Assembly (NCBI RefSeq): GCF_021869535.1
Contig: NW_026262679.1
Location: forward strand, 60,760,001 to 60,824,000
Length of the DNA: 64,000 bases
Source of the DNA: Mytilus californianus
Taxonomy: Eukaryota
Direction of reading: 5' to 3'
Part shown: piece by piece, positions 2,494 through 16,210 of the stretch
Layout of the letters: each line of letters starts with the position of its first letter
How positions within the stretch are numbered: position 1 is the stretch's first letter
Notes under the pieces: generated by a model
Databases searched by the model: none
The model's input: the letters and a program-made list of their open reading frames with translations, nothing else
What the model was told of the DNA's origin: nothing
Translations under genes and position numbers: made by a program

Positions 2494-3313
2494 GTAATAT
2501 ATATATATAAATAAAAAGAGCGTCAATGATATTGCTACTCAATATTACAATCAAATATAAATGATATTAATAGGTCAGCTTTTTTTTACATGCGCACATA
2601 GATTGACACAATTGAATCAAAAGCCAGAGTAGGTTAAAGAACGGTTAAAATCGGCCCCAAGATTTTACTTCTATTTAATCTTGCCAAATCACTGCAAATT
2701 TAACATATAATTTTGTATTACAGCATAAAAACTTCTATTTAGCATATCATATATTGAATTAAGATGTTATGACAGCTTAAATATGCACAATTTGTGTTCT
2801 CGCGTCCGTTTTGTTCCGATTTTTTCTTAGTTTATTAGGATTTTTATTATAGTTATGTTGGTCCTAGTCCTGATTCAGACATTTTTCGTGTATAGGTGTT
2901 CAATATAAACCTTAACAGCTTTTGATTTTAGGTCTGCAAAATGCACAAAATCGTCTTGCTTTAACAACATATTTAAAATGTGCTAATTTAGGAGTCTATA
3001 ATGTATTCTTATGAAACAGATCATTTAACTTAGCGTTAAGACTTTTGAAATACGTCTATTTTAGATAAAAATGAAGCTTTTTTGATATTTTATGATAAAG
3101 TTTCTATTCAAGGCCATTGTTGGAAAATGTAAACCTTGTTGTGTAGTATCACCACCGGATATAGGTACTTCCGCAGCGGTGATAAAAACACGTGAATCTA
3201 TTCCCGTACAGAAAAACACTATTCGCCGTACAATTTATCAGCTTTATTTACATGAATTGTTCTGTGAAAACAATAGTTTATTCCGAAATACAGTGTCGTT
3301 CAAGCTTAAATAT

Positions 3314-4391
3314 TGTAACGGCCGGGTCTGTGCCTGGGGAGATTAAATTTCGGGAGGGACAATTATCCCATCATGTATGAAAAAGTATTTAACTTGTGGA
3401 TGGAAGTCAAGTGTTTGGGAATGGAGAAAAATTGTATAAATACCAAAATACTGTACGTTATTACCGGTGAAATGTCACCGTGAAGCAACACTCTAAAATG
3501 TCACTTAATTATAGTTATGTACACGACACGGTCTCAACACAGCTAGAGTGTCAACCATAAGAAGATACGTACGTTAATTCCTTTTGGGAAAATAAAGACC
3601 CGATATTTTAAATAGAGACCAGCTATCGAACTTAAATTTACTATAACATAGGAATATTTACTCTATATCACAAACAATCTGATTGGATACCTTTACTAGA
3701 AATTATTGAAGGCCAGCGGGCTATTTCACTAACACACAAAAGATCACTTAAATGTACGACACGCCAGCGACACACTTTTGAAATAAATTACAGAATATTT
3801 ATTAATAGAGTCGTGCATAATTATAAAGTAGATTGACATCTACATTTATGCCAATACGTTAGAGACAATAAACTATTAGGCATATACGTACAAACAGAAA
3901 CATCAAACATTGTTTAAAAAGAAGGATAATATTGTTGCTAGTGTTATTGTATTCTATTTATATTAATACACATGTATTTCCCATATATTGATACCAGAGC
4001 TAACAACGTGTAACTACCACGAATGCCAGTAAAGCCGTTTATTAATCCCTATTTCTATCTCGTGTTTTAGGATCACATTATATTACGAGAGCAGCCAATA
4101 TTGTTTTTAATTGTGTATACTATACTTATTAATATATTGTTCAACCTGTATAAACTATAGTGTTGTGGTTAATAAATCATTAACTTCATTCAGTATGATT
4201 CTATAAATGCCCTACAAGACTCAATCTCGATACTGATTACAGATTCGTTGGGTGCTACACTCAAAAATTCATGTAGCAATCCTCTAAGTACGCAACCTAC
4301 GACCTGTTTTCAGGTATATAAAATTATCAGACACATAACGCTAAGTATAAAGTCGTCCGTCACCGGAAGTCGGAACCCTCAGCCCGCTACA
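3314..4391 (+). repeat. 5' LTR (1078 bp)
   Basis: TGTAACGG...CCGCTACA; about 98% identical to the 3' LTR by hand count (roughly 20-25 differences) apart from one 514-bp gap. Confidence 0.95.
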
Positions 4392-4393
4392 AT

Positions 4394-4411
4394 TGGTGGC
4401 AGCGGTGGGAT
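4394..4411 (+). promoter_or_regulatory. Primer-binding site complementary to the tRNA-Leu (AAG/TAG type) 3' end
   Basis: TGGTGGCAGCGGTGGGAT starts 2 nt after the LTR. It is the reverse complement of ...ATCCCACCGCTGCCA-CCA, the metazoan tRNA-Leu(AAG/TAG) end as I recall it. Confidence 0.9.
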
Positions 4412-4432
4412 CTCTATTAGGGAATCCACAGA

Positions 4433-5997
4433 GTGACGTTTGAGACCAAAGACAACCTTTGTAAGACATTGCAAGCAACAGCACGACTACCACTCCACTT
4501 GGAAGAGATGAGGTGGATAACACAGGTGCCCAGGAGACGGGACTCCCCGCACCTGATAGAACACGCTACACCATCGGGAGAAGTACAGGTGCGGGTTACA
4601 AAAGAAAGGACTCGGACTAACCAATCAGATCTCAGACACATAGATGGTACGAGACTAAAATTTACAGATTGTGACAAAGATGAACGTGTCGGCAGGGCGG
4701 CGTTTCATAATCGAAATAGAAACGAATCAGCATTTGTTGACTCAGCATATTTCTTGGCTGAGCATCAACGGTCAACCCATGGAAGGGGAGATACAACTAT
4801 ATATACAAGTCCAAGTTTGACTACGGGACAGGACCCCACGGACATTCGGGAGGTTGGCCATCTCAACAAGAGTATCTCCTGTGATTCTCCTTTGCCAACT
4901 AGGCGAACTAGAATGCAAGAAGAATCAATTTCTATGCCATCCGGAGGCATGAGGGCATTCCCATGGAAGGTCCGCACTGACACTGAGGCTCTTAATTTGT
5001 GTGACGGCCGCGCACGGGAGTCGACAAGGCGAGTGTCAGGGTTTGAGGACAATGTACTTGGTCATTGCTATGACCAATTGACAGAACGACGCCGTTCACC
5101 AGTATTTGGAAATAGATGGGGGAAAATCGACAACCGACAAGGATGCACAATCAGCTTGTTGCAAACAACACAAACACAAGTAACAAAAACAAGAATGCTG
5201 CAAACTATGATTGGGCAAGCAGCTGGCAAGACTATCAGGTACATTTTGAAATGGTGGCTGAGATAAACTGATGGGATAATGCCACAAAAGCCCTAGAGCT
5301 AGCAACGAGTCTCAGAGGATCAGCACAGGCAATTCTCAGTGACCTTAGACCAGATCGAAGAAGAAACTACGAACAACTAGTAGCAGCATTAGTATCACGT
5401 TTTCAGCCCAGTAACCAGGCAGAACTATATAGGGTACAGATGAAAAATAGAACAAGGGATAAAGGACAAGTTTTGCCCGAATTAGCACAGGACATAAAAC
5501 GACTGACAAGACTTGCATACCCGACAGCACCAATTGAAGTGAGGGAACAACTTGCACGTGATTGCTTTATGGACTCCTTAGGGGACCCGGATCTTGAATG
5601 GGCAATTTTCCAGGGGAAACCCATCAATATTGATGACAGTGTCAGGATAGGCCTTGAATATGAGGCGTTCAGTACGGGACAAAGAAGGAAATTCCCGAGC
5701 CGTGTCGCTCTTAGAAGACAGACAGAAGTATCGGATGAATCCGATTGCAGTGACGATATGGGCAACTTAGTAGAAAGATTAGCGAGAATAGAGAAGCAGG
5801 CAACAAAACCAAAGCATCCACTTACCTGTTATTTCTGTGGCATAACCGGCCACATCAAAAGAGAGTGTAGGAAGTATTTGGCTTCACAAGGTCGACAGCA
5901 AAGTCGCCCAGGAGTCACAAGAGCCAACAACAGGACATACACACAGGGCACGCAAACTAATAGTGGATATTTCGTGTCCAATTCGGGAAACTATTAG
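4433..5997 (+). pseudogene. gag: gag, disrupted (frameshift near 5100-5190, in-frame TGA at 5269-5271)
   Basis: Capsid-like SWQDYQVHFEMVAEIN*WDNATKALELATSLRGSA...ELAQDIKRLTRLAYP and zinc knuckle CYFCGITGHIKREC. The start codon is uncertain. Confidence 0.9.
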
Positions 5998-6052
5998 AGG
6001 TCGAAGGAGGGGTCCCACCTTTGATCAGCTTTTGTAAAATTGCACAGGGACC
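5985..6052 (+). promoter_or_regulatory. -1 programmed ribosomal frameshift signal (G GGA AAC heptamer plus H-type pseudoknot)
   Basis: In-frame heptamer 5985-5991; 7-nt spacer; stem 1 5999-6007 pairs 6018-6026 (9 bp incl. 2 G-U); stem 2 6011-6016 GGUCCC pairs 6047-6052 GGGACC. The -1 frame is open into the protease. Confidence 0.85.
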
Positions 6053-6910
6053 ATCTGAGAATTTAAGATGTAGAGAGAATAAACATGATAGTTTGTATTT
6101 AAAAATTTATGTAAATAATGTTATAGTAAATTGTCTTATTGACACAGGGTCAACTATGACAGTACTACATAGCCGCAAATATTTTGCGATACCAGAGCCT
6201 AAAAGGCCAGGGCTTTCAACAAGTGGTGTGCGATTAAAAATGGCCAATGGGGAATTGATACCCACCATGGGTCAAGCAAATTTTTGTATTAAAATCAATG
6301 ACAAGTGTTATAGCCAACGGTTTTTGGTAGCAGAAATTGATGCTCCAGCCGTCCTGAGATACGATTTTCTATACTTACATAAGTGTAACTTGGATATGGG
6401 GGGGGGGGGGGGGGGATTGTTTACTATTGACAACACAGAGATACGTTGTAAGAAAGAAAGTCAAATGGCAGCCATTTTTAAGGTGTCAATTGAACATAAT
6501 ATTGTACTCCCGCCATTTTCTGAAGTGGTCGTACCTGGAAAAATAGAGGGAGACCCTACGCATATATCTAATGCAATTATAGAACCGAAAAATTATTCCG
6601 ACCAGACTGATTTACTTATTGCAAGGTCGTTGGTAGATCCTAGCAATGGAGTTGTACCACTCAGAATTGCCAACATGTCTGACACAGAACGGGTTGTATA
6701 TGGCAGTACAAGGATAGTCAAATATGAGACATTTATTATTGCTCAAGGACGTTTTCTGGATAACGACACGGAAGGACGGATAGATATGGTGAGAGATACT
6801 AAGGAGGAGGAAGACGAAAAACCAAACAGTTTCTGAAAAAGAAGATAAAGATGAACAGTTAGTGACTCGACGTCGGCATAAACCAGCTTATCTCAAAGAT
6901 TATGTTGAAT
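5992..6910 (+). pseudogene. pol: pol remnant: aspartic protease fused to the integrase C-terminal tail
   Basis: CLIDTGSTMTVL protease motif. After about 6730 the sequence jumps to an acidic tail ending TRRRHKPAYLKDYVE* (6908-6910), a typical Gypsy pol C-terminus. No YxDD, RNaseH or HHCC/DDE motifs remain. Confidence 0.88.
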
Positions 6911-7124
6911 AATTGAATTATTAAACTTGATGTACATAATTTACTTGTAAATATGTTGTGACTTTTATTATAATGTTACTAACCTTTAAACTTTGGGATT
7001 ATTTAGGAGTTCCAGTCAATGCAGTCGGAGGAATAACCATGGCTCTGGTATCATTAATTCTCTCCCTGAACGTCGCTTGATAAATAACTTATAATTATAT
7101 TTTCTTTTCTTTGTATCTTAATAG

Positions 7125-8374
7125 ATGAATACATGTATGGTGTGTATGAGAACATACAGAAAACAGGAAAGTTTAAAGAGGCACATGAGATATGCCCACA
7201 GTGTCAACAAAATAAGATGCAGGTGGTGCCCCTATGAGGTGTCGTCAAATGTAAGGTTCAGGATGAAAGACCACAAGCGGTCGCAGCACTGGTACCGGTT
7301 TCACGTTGAGCAGGCAGAACCATTGAAGGAAAATAACTCCAGGAGTTATAATTATAGAAAGGAAAAAGGAGAAAGGAAGAAAAAGAATACCTCAGCAGTA
7401 AAGTCAATAGTTAACAAAATTAGGGGTAAGAAAGAAGAAGAAGAAGAGGTAAAGAAAATTACTAAAGATGTCATTCCACAATTTATAGCTACACCTATTT
7501 CTCCACTAAGGGAGCCATCTCCAGTGGATATTGAGTTTGAAGAATTTGTAGCCACCAAACTTACTACGGAAAAAGAAGACGAGTTGTTTAGCGTACCAAA
7601 GCTAAGGGTGGCAACTCTCCCCATGCCACCTGCAGAGAAATAAAAAATATTGGTGGAGTCTTTGAAAGAGATGGTGGACTCCCCAATTACTGAGAAGACA
7701 GACAAATCATCTAGTGTGGATACGGAAACGGAGGACGTCACGCCTACCGAAAAGGAAACCAACACTAAAGAAGAGGACGTCATGGAAATAGAAGAGATGG
7801 AGGAAGGTGAAGGGAACTACAGGATACTTTCGCCACTACTACTATAGTAATACCTGAAGAGGTAGTGCCGAGCCCAGATGAAGATATCAGGGTGTTTGAA
7901 ATAGATGGGACACGGCCCACTCCACGCTATCTACCATCTAAAGTTAGCGTGATAGACAAAAAGTATGGCAGGGTCTATGACCATCGGCATTATCTATTAC
8001 CTGAAGAAAAGGATAATGAAGACCCTAGGCATGTTTTGGCATGCCCGCCGTCATCGTATAGCCTGGCAGAGGAGGCCTCACTGTTGAGGCGTCTACGAGA
8101 ACAGGCAAGGAGAAAGGGTGTGACATCTAATACTATACCAGATGGATATTCAGGTTTGATTAAGACCGAAAGATGTGAATTACCAGACGGAACAATTTAC
8201 TCACTTACAAGTCACTGGGTACCTGAGATACCAATAAGGAGGAGGCAACACATGGGCACGCAAGTGGACGATATGAAGACAACCGCAAAAGAGACGCAGA
8301 CGGAGACCGTGAAATCAGCTCAAACAGTAGATGTTGAAATAGAGTGTGACATTATTGCATGTAGAATGTACTGA
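7125..8374 (+). pseudogene. Accessory ORF3 (~415 aa reconstructed): two N-terminal C2H2 zinc fingers, acidic/Lys-rich linker, unknown C-terminal domain
   Basis: CMVCMRTYRKQESLKRHMRYAH (C-x2-C-x12-H-x4-H) and CRWC-x14-H-x4-H. ORFs 7125-7643 and 7650-7847 share a frame (one TAA); one frameshift between 7811 and 7845 joins 7865-8374. A polypyrimidine tract and AG directly precede the ATG. Confidence 0.8.
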
Positions 8375-8605
8375 TAATTACAAACAATATATTAGACAAG
8401 TATTCAGTGTGACTTTTGGATTTTATAGATAGTGGTATATATATGTTTGTAAAATTGCATATTATTTATGAATATTTATAATGATTATTTATATATAAGG
8501 TAATTGATAATGGTAAGTAAGCTACTTTACATTGGCATGTTCATGATAAGCTTAGGCTACTAGGGAAATAGTTTGGGAACAGTTTGGGGACACACTCTTT
8601 TTGTT

Positions 8606-8615
8606 AAGGGGGCAT
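8606..8615 (+). promoter_or_regulatory. Polypurine tract
   Basis: AAGGGGG(CAT) immediately before the 3' LTR TG. Confidence 0.8.
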
Positions 8616-10205
8616 TGTAACGGCCGGTCTGTGCCTGGGGAGATTAAATTTCGGGAGGGACAATTATCCCATCATGTATGAAAAAGTATTTAACTTGTGG
8701 ATGGAAGTCAAGTGTTTGGGAATGGAGCTGAATTGTATAAATACCAAAATACTGTACGTTATTACCGGTGAAGTGTCACCTTGAAGCAACACTCTAAAAT
8801 GTCACTTAATTATAGTTATGTACGTATTGAATTATTATGAAATGTGTTTCTTACCTTCCCTAGATAATTTGCTGGCGTTTTCGTGGTAGTTACCATGTAT
8901 TTTTAGAGCTTTAAAAGGTATGTGCAGCGTAAATGTTGCACGACACGCTCTGTGTTATGATATTGTCGTCAGCCATTATTGTTGACGTTATTGTATTGCA
9001 TCTTGGGATAGCGCAGGTGGCATGACGTCACAGACGTTATGCTATTTGCGTTATGTCTTTATTGAACTTTGTGTCGCACCGTGTCGTACTGATTATAAAT
9101 ACGGAAGTTCGCTTCTCTCGGGATCAGTCTTGTCTTTGCTGGGCGCCATATTCAAAATTTGAAAGTCTTACAAGCATTTGCAAATTAATATTGTCATATT
9201 GTCGTTAAGGTGGGCACAATTAATATTATTGTCGAAAGTAATTTCTATTCATTTTATCAATAAGTATTTATTTATCCTCATAAAGAAAACAGTTGGCTTT
9301 TATTAAATATAATATATCATCTTTACTGTGTACCGACACGACACGGTCTCGACACAGCTAGAGTGTCAACCATAAGAAGATACGTACGTTAATTCCTTTT
9401 GGGAAAATAAAGACCCGATATTTTGAATAGAGACCAGCTATCGAACTTAATTTTACTATAACACAAGAATATTTACTCTATATCACAAACAATCTGATTG
9501 GATACCTTTACTAGAAATTATTGAAGGCCAGCGGGCTATTTCACTAACACACAAAAGATCACTTAAATGTACGACACGCCAGCGACACACTTTTGAAATA
9601 AATTACAGAATATTGATTAATAGAGTCGTGCATAATTATAAAGTAGATTGACATCTTCATCTATGCCAATAAGTTAGAGACATTAACTATTAGGCATATA
9701 CGTACAAACAGAAACATCAAACATTGTTTAAAAAGAAGGATAATATTGTTGCTAGTGTTATTGTATTCTATTTATATTAATACACATGTATTTCCCATAT
9801 ATTGATACCAGAGCTAACAACGTGTAACTACCACGAATGCCAGTAAAGCCGTTTATTAATCCCTATTTCTATCTCGTGTTTTAGAATCACATGATATTAC
9901 GAGAGCAGCCAATATTGTTTTTAATTGTGTATACTATACTTATTAATATATTGTTCAACCTGTATAAACTATAGTGTTGTGGTTAATAAATCATTAACTT
10001 TATTCAGTATGATTCTATAAATGGCCTACAAGACTCAATCTCGATACTGATTACAGATTCGTTGGGTGCTACACTCACAAATTCATGTAGCAATCCTCTA
10101 AGTACGCAACCTACGACCTGTTTTCAGGTATATAAAATTATCAGACACATAACGCTAAGTATAAAGTCGTCCGTCACCGGAAGTCGGAACCCTCAGCCCG
10201 CTACA
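8616..10205 (+). repeat. 3' LTR (1590 bp)
   Basis: Same ends as the 5' LTR; carries an extra 514 bp (8824-9337). Confidence 0.95.
9023..9152 (+). promoter_or_regulatory. Candidate LTR Pol II core promoter (CRE, TATA, Inr, YY1-like)
   Basis: TGACGTCA 9023-9030; TATAAATA 9094-9101; TCAGTC initiator with A at 9126 (32 nt after the TATA start); CGCCATATT 9144-9152. Confidence 0.6.
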
Positions 10206-12520
10206 ATATGATACAACTTTGTTCTACGAAAATGTCAAATGAACAGTTGAAGGATAAATGTAAATGTGTTTTAACAAGTTTGAACTCGTCACATGCTTCT
10301 TTGAACAGTAACCACCCGGTCCGATTCTGACGATTTGAAGAGAGAAATCCATCAAAGATCATAATCAGCTTTAAACAGTCATGCTGGTTAAAATGAAGTA
10401 ATTATTTACATAGGCGACAATGGTAGCCTTTTTGGGTCCTACGTTTTAACTATAAAAGATCCGTTGATAAAACTGTCAAATTCTGAATTGTCAACACCTT
10501 TAGGGGTGAATAAAACTGCAAAACACATATGGTACCGCAGATTTTTTGATAGAAAAATGGCATTTTCTAAGGGTACTCTATGGTTCTAGAATTTTCAAAT
10601 AGTATGAATGATGAACACCCCTTGCTTGATTTTGCACAGAAAATATTAATGTTGCTCGTCACAGAGAGTTTCCTCCAAATTTCTCGCTATTTCTACACCA
10701 AATACCAACACTCATCTCTCACTATTTCAATTTAGAAAATGAACAGGGCAGCAGACAATAAATTTACTTCTACCTATTATCATGGATGTAAAAACTAGGT
10801 GGCGCCAGTCACTTTAATTACTTCCTTTTAACCTATATAGTAGCTACATTATGCGGAATCAGTATCACAAAACTTTATTAGTCAGCAAAATATGGAATAC
10901 AATGAAACTAAGAAAAAAATTAACCTTGTCTTTCCACCGGTTGGGGGTTACCTTTATCCGGTGGCGATGCTACACAGTGTTACCGTTATAATGATTGAAT
11001 GTTTGAGGGGATCATGAAATCAAGGTCACAATCTTAATTTGTCATATAATGTAAAACAATGAACATATGTACTAAGTTTCAAGTTAACTTAATCAATAAT
11101 TCATGGTAAACCTCCTTAATTGAAGACTTGAACCTGCGAATATAAATTGTTTCACACTTTTACATGTATGATGAACCGTGAAATTGGGGGCTAAACCATG
11201 ATGTGACATAAACTTTAACATTACTTTTCTATATGAGAATTTGACAATTAGGTCAGTTCATAAAATCGGGTTGATATAGAATTATTGCGAGGTTAGATCA
11301 TAGGAATTTTGTACTATATCGGAAATATTTGGCAGTTTACCCAACAATATCTTTGATATTTCATTAACAAATATATCGATACTTTTAAAGGGAAATATTT
11401 GAATCAATGCTAACAGTCAATAATGGAAGAAGGTGACAGATTTTATTTCAATAAGATTGATCGTATTATACTAACATACCCGTGATCCTTTGCGACACAG
11501 ATATAAACATTAGATATTGCATAACGCTCAAGTAGTAATAATGGCATCAGTTTATCTTTCTGAAAGATTACTTACTTAACAATTTAGAGACCTTGATGAC
11601 AATTCATCGTAGCAACATATAGTCTATTTTGATAGGAAACACAACCCCTGGAACATACTAAAAGTGAATTTCATCTAGTTAACCTTCGACTTTTTTAAAA
11701 CTTTTGCTTAAAAAAACATTTTCAATATATTATTTCGGAAAATCACCAGATAACTTTCTATTTATATTAAATCTTATATATACAATTGGATATTCAAAGC
11801 TGGATCAGCAAAATGGAAGTTAAGGGTCATACTAAAAACAGCTTTGACCAGCATGATGCATCTGGACCTATTAGAATCAGCTGACGGCTTACATTGATCG
11901 TGAATATTAGATGACAATTCTTGTGTAAAACACAAAATTGAAAGTTGCACTGCAAATTTGGCTTTTCATGTTGAATTTAAATTGTGTTGTCATCATAGAC
12001 ATATACTTCTGAAGACTGAAAGTTCGAGAATTTATGAGATGTGGCTTAAATTAAAATTCAAAATCAACACAGTCAACATTTGTTAATATTTGTCATTTAC
12101 AGATTATCTCTACCAGTATCACAGAAATAAATAAAGATGAGAAAAAACCCAACCAACTTCGCATATATATGAACACAGAGATTAAAGACTGCGTATTTTT
12201 TAATAGACAAATAAATACACAAATTACATTTAATTAAGGTTCGCGTTCTTACAAAAATACTAAAGTCAATACCATGTTTTCATAGATAAATTCAGATTGG
12301 TTAGTATATATATGGATTACTCTGACTGAGTTTTGCATCGCTTCGGTATTCATTAACACGTAGAAACCTGTCTGACAACATAAATATTAAAACATCTGGC
12401 TATAATTAAAAAAGAGTCGTGCCTGATGCAAATCTAGATTTATTGCTTTGAATTAAATAAAATATTAGATTTTGAGTCTTAGTTTACGAAAAAATGTCCT
12501 ATTCTTTTTTTCTTTTTTAG

Positions 12521-12566: not shown

Positions 12567-13469
12567 AAAGGATTTAACAAATAAAATCAACAATTGATTG
12601 AAATGTAATAATAAACATTGCATTTGAAATTGTTTTATATGTTTTGAACCAGTTTACAGAAAAGTCAAAAGCCTTTTAAAAATCTTCTTAGAAGAAATGG
12701 GCATATGTTTAACACCCAGTCTTTGATAGAACTGTGCAAAAGGCTTATTAGTTGGTCTACATGACGTGTCAACCAAATGTAATAAAATTTTGCACATATG
12801 CTTTTATAGTCAAAAGAATCAAAAGTTTTAACTTTTAAATTTGATATGATGCTATATAAATAAGAAGATGTGGTATGAGTGCCAATGAGACAACTCTCCA
12901 TCCAAGTCACAATGTATAAAAAGTTAATAATTATAGGTCAAAGTACGGCCTTCAACACGGAGCCTTGGCTCACACCGAACAGCAAGCTATAAAGGGCCCA
13001 AAAATGACTAGTGTAAAACAATTCCTTGTTTAGAGTTTGCAGCGCCATCAACTGAATAGGAATATTTCCCAAATGAAATTCAAATATGAAAGTTATAGTG
13101 CAGTAAAATAGTTTTATTCAGATATCTGAAGAATAATATAGCCTTCAAAATGGGTTTATGTGAACATCAATATTGTTTTTAATGTTTTATAGCCCGTTAT
13201 CTGTTTGACAGTCCGTAATTTCACATCTGTACCACTCATAGGTCCAGAAATTATTGTAGTGTTTTCCACCAAATATTTTACGCTCGAATCTTTCAATTCA
13301 TTTTTATGGAAAATAAGATGAAAATTAATGTTGACAGAATATGGAAGTTTGACATTTTTCAACTGAATCATAGATAGAAAAACACATTGTTTTGTCTAAA
13401 AACTCTCGTTTTACACTTTGGTATGCTATGTTTGATATTTTAAGATATTTCAAATTTTAAAAAATGCAT

Positions 13470-16210
13470 TTTAAGTGTATAATCTCCCTTTGTACCATGA
13501 TAGCAAATCAATATTCATGGCATATGATACTGTATTTGTATGTTCGTTGTTACTTAAACTAACCTTGTATAATATAATAATGCTTTTGAAAAATTTACAC
13601 TTACATTTAAAAAATTATCTACAGATAGATATTTTTAATTCATTGATTCAATGTGAGAAATTGAAACTTTAGGCATTTTTTGAATGAATTCGGGAAAGTA
13701 CTTAAACGAGAGTCCACAAATTTTGTAAGCTAAACTGCAGCATTGTTCACTCTCACGAACTCAAAAAGACAGATGAAAGTATGTTTATATTTTTAATGGA
13801 CAAAGAGCTGAATATTTTTTTAAAATGTGTACTCTTAAGATCTTGATAAATGCATTTTTACTGAATTATCTCCCGCTGTACCATAAAAAATCAATATTTA
13901 TGGCATCATATATGGTAATTATATTATGTTCATTATTTCTTAGTCTATTCTTTTCAAGTAATATAATGCTTTTGATAAAGAAATACTTTCCATCTACGAA
14001 TCGATAATTTAAATTCATTAAATTATTGAGAAAACATGCTAATTAGGCATTTTTCGAGTAGAATTCTAAGATGTTCTCAAACAAGAGCCCAGAAATGCTA
14101 TAAGCTAAAATGCATTATAAACTGTTTCACGTAAAAAGACAAACGAATGTATTTTTATTTTTTTGATGGACCAAACGCTTAACAGTTCCAAATATGTACT
14201 TTTTATGATTTTCTGAAATGACTTTTTTAGCTCACCGGGCCCGAAGGGCCCCTTGTGAGCTTATGCCATCACTTGGCGTCCGTAGTCGTCCGTCGTCTGT
14301 CTCTGTCGTCTGTCGTCTGTCGTCGTCGTAAACTATTTCTAGAATCTTCTCTGAAACTACACGGCCAAATACCTTCAAACTTTAACCGAATGTTTCTTAG
14401 TGTATCTAGTTTATAAATTGTATCCGAAGTTTTGATCCATCAACAAACATGGCCGCCATGACTAAAAATAGAACATAGGGGTCAAATGCAGTTTTTGGCT
14501 TATATCTCAAAAACTAAAGCATTTACAGCAAATCTGATGTCAGGTACAAATGTTCAATAGGTCCAGATCTATCAGCCCTTAAATTTTCAGACGAACCGAA
14601 CAACCCATTGTTGGCTTGCTGCCACTAAATTGGTAATTTTAAGGAAATTTTGCAGTTTTTGGTTATTATCTTGAATATTATTGAAGATAAAGATAAACTA
14701 TAAAGAGCAAAAATTTTCAGCAAAGTAAGATTTACAAAAAAGTTAAATGACCAAAATTGTCAATTGACTCTTTAAGGAGTTATTGCCCTTTAAAGACAAT
14801 TTTACACAATTTGTTCATCATGTTTGCTTATATTTAAAAAATCTTCTCCTCTGAAACTACGAAGCCAAATACTGCCAAACTTTAACTGAATGTTTCGTAG
14901 GATATCTATTTTATATATTTCATCCGATGTTTTGATCCATCAACAAAAATGGCCGCAATGGCTAAAAATAGAACATAGGGGACAAAAGCAGTTTTTGGCT
15001 TATATCTCAAAAACTCCAGCAGTTAGAGCAAAAGCGAAAGGAGTTAAAGTGATAAATGGGTCATGATATATCTAACATGAAATTTTTAAACAAGTTCGAC
15101 AACCCATTATTGGGTTACTGTTGGAAATAAATTTTTTTATTAAATTTTTCGGTTTTCGGTTATTTTTCTTAATATATATTATAATAGATAGAGAGAATCT
15201 GTCAATGGCAATAAATCTTCAGCTAAGTAAGATCTCTAAATAAGTCAACATGATCAAAATAGTCAGTTCACTCCTTAAGGAGTTATTGCCCTTAAAACTT
15301 TTTTTTTTTTTTTACATTTTTTCTGAAAGTGTAATTACTTTTTCAAAAATCTTCTTCTCTGAAAATACTTGGCCAAATACCCAAAAACTTTAATTAAATG
15401 TTCCTTATGGTATCTTGTTTATTGATTGTATCTTATACACTTTATAGCTTGCTGTTTGGTGTGAGCCAAGGCTCCGTGTTAAAGACCGTACTTTGACCTA
15501 TAATGGTTTACTTATATAAATTGTGACTTGGATGGAGAGTTGTCTCATTGGCACTCATACCACATCTTCTTATATCTATTATATGTACATTTTACCTATC
15601 AAGTATTCTTCAGACCAATAGTGTTGGGTTACTGTCCAGAAATAGTTATTTTTTAGGAAATTTTACAGTTTTGGGTATGTATTAACCTTAATATTATTAT
15701 AGAAAGAGAGAACGTGTAAATGACAAAAATTGTTCAGCAAAGTAAGATCTACAAATAAGTCAAATGCCTGAAACTGAAATTACAGGTGAGCGATATCAGG
15801 CTCTCATGAGCCTCTTGTTACTGGTTTCTCTCCCTTGGAATAATCCACAAAAGGTTTCTTGTAAATTTGTATTCTGATATAATGCTTTTGAAAAAGCAAC
15901 ACTTACCATTCTACAGTTATCTACAGATTGGTATTTTGAATTCATTGATTTATTGACAAAACATGTACATTTAAGCATTTTTCGAGTAGAATTCTAAAAT
16001 GTACTAAAACAGGAGCCCAAAAATTTTATAAGCCAAGATGCATTATTGACTATTTCACTTAAAAAAAAGAAGATATGTTTATATTTTCAATGGACCAAAG
16101 GCTGGATAGTTTTTAAAATATGTACTTTTTATGATTTTCTGAAATGTTTTTTCTCACTGGTTCATCTCCCTTGGAATAATCCATAAAAAGGTTTTTTTGT
16201 AAATTTGTGT
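13470..16210 (+). repeat. Three diverged ~380-bp tandem units, split by a HINE
   Basis: Shared blocks (ATAATGCTTTTGA, GCATTTTTCGAGTAGAATTCTAA, TGTACTTTTTATGATTTTCTGAAATG) recur near 13.5-13.8, 13.9-14.2 and 15.85-16.2 kb. Confidence 0.7.
14223..15819 (+). mobile_element. Helentron-associated non-autonomous element (HINE; pearl/CvA-like structure)
   Basis: 5' TTTTAGCTCACC, palindrome GGCCCGAAGGGCC, (GTC/GTCT)n microsatellite, ~500-bp internal repeats, 3' GGTGAGC, hairpin AGGCTC-TCAT-GAGCCT and CTTGTT; inserted in a T run. Confidence 0.9.

Follow-up and report, generated by a model that had tools for sequence, protein, structure and literature searches.

The window analyzed here, a stretch of 64,000 nucleotides from Mytilus californianus, carries a decayed, internally deleted copy of a Ty3/Gypsy (Metaviridae) LTR retrotransposon, a dead element that is one among many. 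The whole element, delimited by its LTRs, target-site duplication, primer-binding site and polypurine tract, occupies positions 3314..10205 of the plus strand, on which all of the element features given below also lie. A direct read of the letters shows a 4-bp target-site duplication on its left (3310..3313) that is repeated at 10206-10209. The 5' LTR (3314..4391) has TG...CA ends, the 3' LTR (8616..10205) was defined by LTR-LTR comparison, and the pair is 97.1% identical over 209 nt and 98.2% identical over 870 nt. The 5' LTR lacks about 512 nt that the 3' LTR has at 8824-9335 and that other copies and RNA-type contigs have too. The primer-binding site (4394..4411) is complementary to the 3' end of a host tRNA-Leu(TAG), and the polypurine tract, also read directly, lies at 8606..8615. 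Gag survives in pieces (4421..5997) with a CCHC knuckle in the part 5272-5997, for which Pfam gave PF00098 over the cut-off and PF03732 with an E value of 0.0009; the gag frame 4421-5266 had no match in a Pfam search. The protease part of pol was identified with Pfam at 5964..6836. Behind it RT, RNase H and integrase are deleted, with a junction near 6833, and the stretch 6833..6912, common to family copies with integrase upstream, holds the last pol codons and the stop (6910-6912).

Between this stop and the polypurine tract lies a third open reading frame, ORF3 (7125..8374). Relatives that bear ORF3 and have a whole pol show the Gypsy order protease-RT-RNase H-integrase that is deleted in the window, and the best solved match of their RT is the Ty3 RT (E 7e-77). 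Pol remnants are kept in the copies L017, L018 and L024. An earlier sequence-only reading of this DNA had proposed that the ORF was retained even though RT and integrase were lost. This proposal finds no support, because the sister copy L016 (97-99% identical) has a different deletion, in which gag and RT are gone and integrase is kept, and because the ORF3 of the window is itself broken; the loss of RT and integrase is particular to the window copy and thus says nothing about ORF3 retention. The flanks of the element (3250-3313 and 10205-10300) are part of a repeat that is common in RNA-type runs, where many reads join both flanks, indicating that the element inserted into another repeat. Elsewhere in the genome, the locus L105 (G000 C86, from 2091989) is a tandem array with a 1300-nt period of the tRNA-Leu(TAG) gene, the element's primer, and the primer pattern has 308 exact matches genome-wide.

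In the window ORF3 is interrupted twice, by a stop (7641-7643) and by a frameshift near 7813, and reads as a frame of 172 aa (7125-7643) up to the in-frame stop, a middle piece, and a 187-aa open frame ending at 8374. A reconstructable ORF of ~415 aa had been proposed here from the letters, and this gene length is correct since L016, the nearest natural ORF3 copy (97% identical), is open for 347 aa across the stop and frameshift sites and the relative P0008 is open for 416 aa. Natural ORF3 proteins with the whole layout are open for 345-426 aa. The two predicted N-terminal C2H2 fingers were found at 7134..7289: finger 1 (7134-7199) is canonical, C-x2-C-x12-H-x3-H, and matches PF00096 with an E value of 0.012, below the cut-off, and finger 2 (7218-7289) has an atypical longer spacing, C-x2-C-x14-H-x5-H, that is kept in most families. 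Next comes a charged linker, in whose middle a short motif, SP...P...LF (7500..7589), is conserved; the linker leads to a C-terminal domain that belongs to no Pfam family (7985..8245, extended back to 7883 in families A and B) and comprises a PPS motif, a helix, a beta-hairpin LPDGTxY and a Trp. Behind it are two LC8-type anchors (8249..8305), GTQV at 8249-8269 and ETQT at 8285-8305, for which binding is predicted from the motif. Basic NLS-like runs occur in 11 of 12 ORF3 proteins and Ser/Thr-Pro clusters are also present.

No signal peptide or membrane anchor of the env type was found in ORF3, in agreement with the sequence-only reading. We detected no hydrophobic segment, the top 19-residue hydropathy mean being 0.45 and 0.58 in the window pieces and at most 1.01 in 12 proteins, and ORF3 had no Pfam or PDB match to an F- or gB-type fusogen. 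ORF3 resembles the third ORF of errantiviruses, the Ty3/gypsy elements with env, by its place between pol and the 3' LTR (PMC13524379) and differs in having C2H2 fingers instead of a signal peptide, a membrane segment or a fusogen family. According to the available text of the same survey, errantiviruses occur in molluscs and tRNA-Leu primers occur among them; the words 'zinc', 'C2H2' and 'Mytilus' are absent from its main text (PMC13524379).

Candidate splicing signals precede ORF3. We predict a branch-point-like TACTAAC (6977-6983) with a candidate first acceptor AG at 7005-7006 (feature 6977..7006), a 41-nt mini-exon (7007..7047) with an ATG at 7039 (ACCATGG), and a 77-nt intron (7048..7124) that runs in frame from a CTG/GT donor (GT at 7048) to a pyrimidine tract and AG at 7123-7124, directly before the ATG at 7125. 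All coordinates that the sequence-only reading had given, among them those of the pol stop, of the upstream ACCATGG and of the AG at 7123-7124, proved correct. Env of the Drosophila gypsy element is made by splicing, and a spliced accessory gene had been suggested here as well. Its signals are conserved: the pyrimidine tract and AG stand directly before the ORF3 start codon in families A-D, and a CTG/GT donor is found 60-81 nt before this start in 13 of 14 loci from four families, loci that form four or five independent groups, compared with about 0.02 per locus after shuffling. The upstream ATG fared less well as a start: it keeps the frame in families A and B but not in family C, and L018 and L020 lack it, so that the intron is better supported than the three extra residues. 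An in-frame Met before finger 1 is absent in 7 of the 33 sister-lineage loci described below (four belong to a single family, in which a stop lies shortly upstream of the AG), suggesting a 5' exon at these loci. The missing ATG in L070 is no proof of splicing, as its close relatives L107 and L108 and a gene model have the Met.

The RNA joint itself was not seen in the contigs of three presumed-RNA runs (two samples, one study). RNA-type contigs cover ORF3 and the LTR, leave 4194 to 7025 uncovered, and have other letters than the window at the stop codon; their origin from the sister copy was rejected, as only 4 of 17 variant letters are common to both. One such contig (7105-7284, depth 4.9) is unspliced over the acceptor, though its intron part is no longer than 20 nt. 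In the raw RNA run X8, of which 6% was read, almost nothing fell on ORF3, and RNA coverage of family C fell on the LTR only, with none on ORF3. Judging from the conserved signals, ORF3 is likely made from a spliced sub-genomic RNA.

To judge from its sequence comparisons, ORF3 is a real element-encoded, non-env accessory gene under purifying selection that is common to many families. A DNA search of the genome gave 15 matches including the window (69-100% identity), and a search with the C-terminal domain gave 49 places (28-100% identity). Twenty diverged places were fetched, leading to the identification of at least four further families (B-E) with a finger ORF or domain behind pol or gag and before the LTR; five of the 20 (L072, L074, L075, L076 and L080) are fragments without clear pol context. 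In all, ORF3 is present in at least five diverged families (A-E) of the host genome, behind integrase and before the LTR, which speaks against a one-off capture. In alignments trimmed to runs of identity, which lowers dN somewhat, dN/dS between the window and family copies was 0.06-0.17 for the fingers in 6 of 7 comparisons (the near-identical sister gave 1.47 on seven changes), 0.09-0.18 for the linker in 7 of 7, 0.11-0.33 for the C-terminal domain in 6 of 8 with two saturated, and 0.17-0.55 for the tail in 3 of 3. In family C the fingers gave 0.00-0.25 in 6 of 8 comparisons and the domain 0.10-0.53 in 7 of 8, with close pairs alone falling outside these ranges, and the RT control gave 0.04-0.10 in 6 of 9 with three saturated. 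Values of about 0.06-0.33 between subfamilies are far from the value near 1 that would have counted against a maintained gene. Pairs of near-identical copies have a dN/dS of 0.5-1.5, as expected of decay after insertion. The integrase tree and the domain tree both split A+B from C+D with starred support, and long branches are flagged in the domain tree.

The finger ORF extends beyond these families. A C2H2-like open frame lies within 1.5 kb behind integrase at 33 of 40 related loci, on the opposite strand at 3 of 40, and in 4 of 70 window tiles; the 40 loci, drawn across the ranking from 150 listed integrase matches with 31-94% identity, are copies of roughly twenty families and not independent draws, 8 of them had been picked with prior knowledge of a nearby match (7 of these scored), the blind picks scored 26 of 32, and L126 is doubtful. 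The fragments behind the integrase of L126 look by eye like a nuclease that we take to be TatD. L111-L113, one family with a related integrase, have no C2H2 ORF behind it. The type of C-terminal module follows the integrase clade. The window-type domain is found in L107, L108, L110 and L121. In L114-L119, L122, L124, L127, L143 and L145 the third ORF combines a C2H2 finger with a KCTD-type BTB at its C-terminus (BTB_2, PF02214; E down to 4e-19, three above and one at the cut-off), and several copies are open over 400-460 aa. Coiled-coil-like ends are present in L128, with weak Pfam support, and by eye in L130 and L136. Three other C-terminal blocks match no Pfam family (L125/L131/L132/L135/L140, L129/L133/L134/L141 and L137-L139), and two of the three were confirmed as common within their group. 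The locus L106 and five places like it form a young multi-copy family with a finger ORF of 274-275 aa and no Met before finger 1; of the domain, only the hairpin and a TQC anchor are kept.

These data bear on whether a captured host zinc-finger gene hitch-hikes on the element and does it no service. Annotation pipelines do call these proteins host C2H2 genes and the family L111-L113 does without such an ORF, but purifying selection between subfamilies, congruent trees, a constant position in many families and the decay of the gene in dead copies leave this explanation close to refuted.

Searches of protein databases with the domain profile returned 50 proteins in a word-indexed search and 186 clusters at 50% identity in a full scan. 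The named close relatives are all from Mytilus, and of 20 distant clusters looked up the three with names are from Argopecten, Potamilus and Haliotis. The finger pattern is found upstream of the domain in 20 of 48 long new representatives, many of the others beginning inside the gene. Among the database proteins, the element context shows in gene models of Mytilus to which pol domains are fused. No relative could be confirmed in metagenome or viral contigs. In Mytilus annotations ORF3 goes under the name of a host 'C2H2-type domain-containing' gene (P0019, P0026, P0027 and P0114-P0121) and is joined to pol or ankyrin exons at the same acceptor.

The C-terminal block, called compact-looking in the sequence-only reading, is conserved, but a compact fold was not recovered. 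AlphaFold2 models built from 11 and 48 sequences, both of which ended just before the first TQ anchor, reached a pLDDT of 56.6 and 53.7 and showed a helix and a hairpin with no packing. These are poor models, and fold searches with them found no match, which says nothing about novelty. A PDB sequence search gave one weak match of 14 residues, and the ESM Atlas gave no match at 0.9 or more.

TQT motifs are concentrated in the tails behind the domain. In the set where the motif was first noticed there are 22 in 18 proteins, compared with 1.7 expected, and none upstream; in 15 lineage representatives there are 18, compared with 1.4 expected. We then scored an independent set of 72 new representatives, after 55 of 127 proteins had been set aside because they had no hairpin motif, a short tail or a very long sequence. 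A strict tail TQT was present in 29 of the 72 (shuffle mean 3.7, highest 13 in 3000), and in 1 of 53 upstream controls. The broad anchor was present in 48 of the 72 and missing in 24, and the GTQV of the window sits at the offset that is fixed family-wide, with ETQT behind. Both a distant group (P0057/P0100/P0128-P0134) and the locus L121 lack TQT despite having fingers or the domain. These motifs predict that the host hub protein LC8 dimerises ORF3. The host genome has at least seven single-exon LC8 genes; seven close ones were located at L081-L087 (G000 C154), and four or more diverged ones at L088-L091 (C13).

The TQ motifs could also belong to a regulatory ORF3 without being LC8 sites, either as a structural strand of the domain or as TQ phosphorylation sites of the ATM/ATR type. 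The first anchor stands at exactly one offset in 38 of the 48 proteins, as a folded element would, and both structure models, which stop just short of it, showed no packing. Against this, extra TQT copies, up to three or more, recur further down the low-complexity tails, the residue after TQ is mostly T, V or C, for which kinase sites have no need, and the reordered controls QTT, TTQ and TQE are not enriched. We regard such a non-LC8 role as improbable. The LC8-type anchors and the lineage-wide finger ORF are features that go beyond the earlier reading.

Two host proteins combine comparable parts. ASCIZ/ATMIN has an N-terminal zinc-finger domain and a disordered C-terminus with 7-11 LC8 TQT motifs (PMC5963919, in the portion available); the layout of fingers and TQT tail is alike, with 1-4 motifs in ORF3 instead of 7-11, and ORF3 has its own conserved domain before the first anchor. 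Panoramix has two proven LC8 sites, TQT and TQV, beside a second dimerising unit (PMC7919418, likewise), a pair that the predicted GTQV/ETQT sites of the window resemble. Both are host genes whereas ORF3 is element-borne, and no Pfam family was found that links ORF3 to either. ORF3 was also considered as an ASCIZ/ATMIN orthologue and rejected, being multi-copy and element-borne and not a single-copy host gene.

Our preferred interpretation, to which we give an even chance, is that ORF3 is a nuclear finger protein, produced from a spliced message and dimerised by LC8, that acts on the element's own DNA or chromatin to tune expression. A spliced sub-genomic message would give the ORF3 protein, and LC8 would hold two ORF3 tails together beside the conserved domain. 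As two fingers on their own are weak DNA binders, LC8 pairing would supply avidity, as in ASCIZ, and the paired fingers would gain it for a site in the element. The acidic, Ser/Thr-Pro-rich linker would then act on transcription or chromatin. By analogy, the KCTD-type BTB and the coiled coil that sister lineages have in this place suggest that the C-terminus serves oligomerisation, for which they would be alternative means.

An action after transcription must be weighed against this. ORF3 might bind the element's RNA or particle, in export or packaging or in the manner of Rev/Rex, with the LC8 motifs used for assembly or transport. RNA binding is known for C2H2 fingers, LC8 motifs are found in several viral proteins, finger 2 departs from the usual spacing, and a gene that depends on splicing calls for a means of switching between the spliced and the unspliced RNA. 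However, ORF3 has no membrane or capsid feature, its finger-linker-oligomeriser layout, Ser/Thr-Pro clusters and basic runs are traits of nuclear regulators, and LC8 mostly dimerises its clients (PMC7919418, from the part seen). We therefore hold this role to be unlikely.

Slightly less unlikely is an anti-silencing adaptor, the fingers of which would grip a host silencing factor or chromatin while the C-terminus recruits or titrates a hub, LC8 here and Cullin-3 in the BTB lineages. Lentiviral Vif or Vpx, which recruit ubiquitin ligases, offer an analogy. The solved relatives nearest to the sister BTB are KCTD5, the closest, SHKBP1, KCTD17 and Cul3 adaptors, and recruitment of Cullin-3 by the BTB-type third ORF is possible by analogy. 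The resemblance to KCTD5-type proteins concerns the C-terminus of sister-lineage ORF3 only (L114-L119, L122, L143), not the window family, and in these lineages the BTB differs in being C-terminal to a finger and on a retrotransposon. The C-terminal modules vary between lineages, as in an arms race, and LC8 is needed for piRNA-guided silencing in flies (PMC7919418, in the text at hand). On the other side, Panoramix is a protein described in flies, an element protein of low copy number is not likely to titrate a hub that is abundant and has at least seven genes, and the strong purifying selection seen on the fingers is more in keeping with a fixed target than with a chase. Regulation of the element by an LC8-dimerised ORF3 remains the interpretation that we prefer.

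Genes at the 3' end that act on the element's own expression are known from complex retroviruses, namely tax/rex of HTLV, tas/bel1 of foamy virus and tat/rev of HIV, and are expressed from RNA that is spliced more than once or starts internally and that has a small leader exon. ORF3 shares the 3' placement; the retroviral regulators are not C2H2 proteins and would not be expected to be related to it in sequence, and the host of ORF3 is an env-less Metaviridae element. The Drosophila MDG1 genes sORF1 and sORF2 are likewise accessory genes under purifying selection on an env-less Gypsy element, and sORF1 is nuclear with a possible helix-turn-helix, but they are small (70-110 aa), mostly upstream of gag, unspliced and without fingers (bioRxiv 10.1101/2025.03.14.642691, from its accessible text, in which 'zinc' and 'mollus' do not occur). 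The plant Tat/Retand elements have extra genes between pol and the 3' LTR, as here, in a plant lineage (PMC11963269, in part). A survey of mollusc LTR elements names the Gypsy clades A, B, C, MolGy and others and uses neither 'zinc' nor 'ORF' in its main text, and the Troyka paper mentions zinc fingers, in the text available, only for Gag (PMC6238403; PMC12440569). Full-text searches, largely of openly accessible papers, turned up no account of a third ORF with C2H2 fingers or a BTB for molluscan Gypsy elements. What appears to be new is the gene class, a non-env finger ORF on an otherwise ordinary Gypsy element.

Other features of the window surround the element. At positions 1-290 and 422-776, a frame resembling a tyrosine recombinase comes to its end with three 29-nt repeats behind it, which presumably marks the terminus of a DIRS-type or Crypton element. 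An EGF-like coding stretch at 2285-2479 resembles a host exon, and the retrotransposon may sit in an intron of an EGF-like gene. Diverged repeats with a period of ~500 nt, together with an inverted-repeat pair 2.4-2.6 kb apart, are found at 12854-15780.

Animal LTR retrotransposons have been described as gag-pol, sometimes with env, and self-encoded regulators are known mainly from complex retroviruses. Tentatively, and with somewhat less confidence than for the function of ORF3 itself, we propose that a large and old molluscan Gypsy clade may consist of 'complex' retrotransposons, with a spliced finger regulator in the env slot and a swappable C-terminus that would plug into a host hub (LC8, a KCTD-type BTB with possible Cullin-3, or coiled coils), serving self-switching or counter-silencing and seeding finger genes that are annotated as the host's. 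In the mussel genome, a finger gene whose C-terminal module is exchangeable accompanies most of the sampled relatives of one integrase, and one family of modules reaches from bivalves (mussel, scallop and freshwater mussel) to a gastropod, the abalone. The C-terminus of ORF3 defines a new protein domain, and many 'C2H2 domain-containing' gene models of molluscs are flagged as element genes. The finger ORFs make it possible to test directly whether transcription or anti-silencing factors are encoded by retrotransposons themselves, with LC8 and Cullin-3 as the named host partners.
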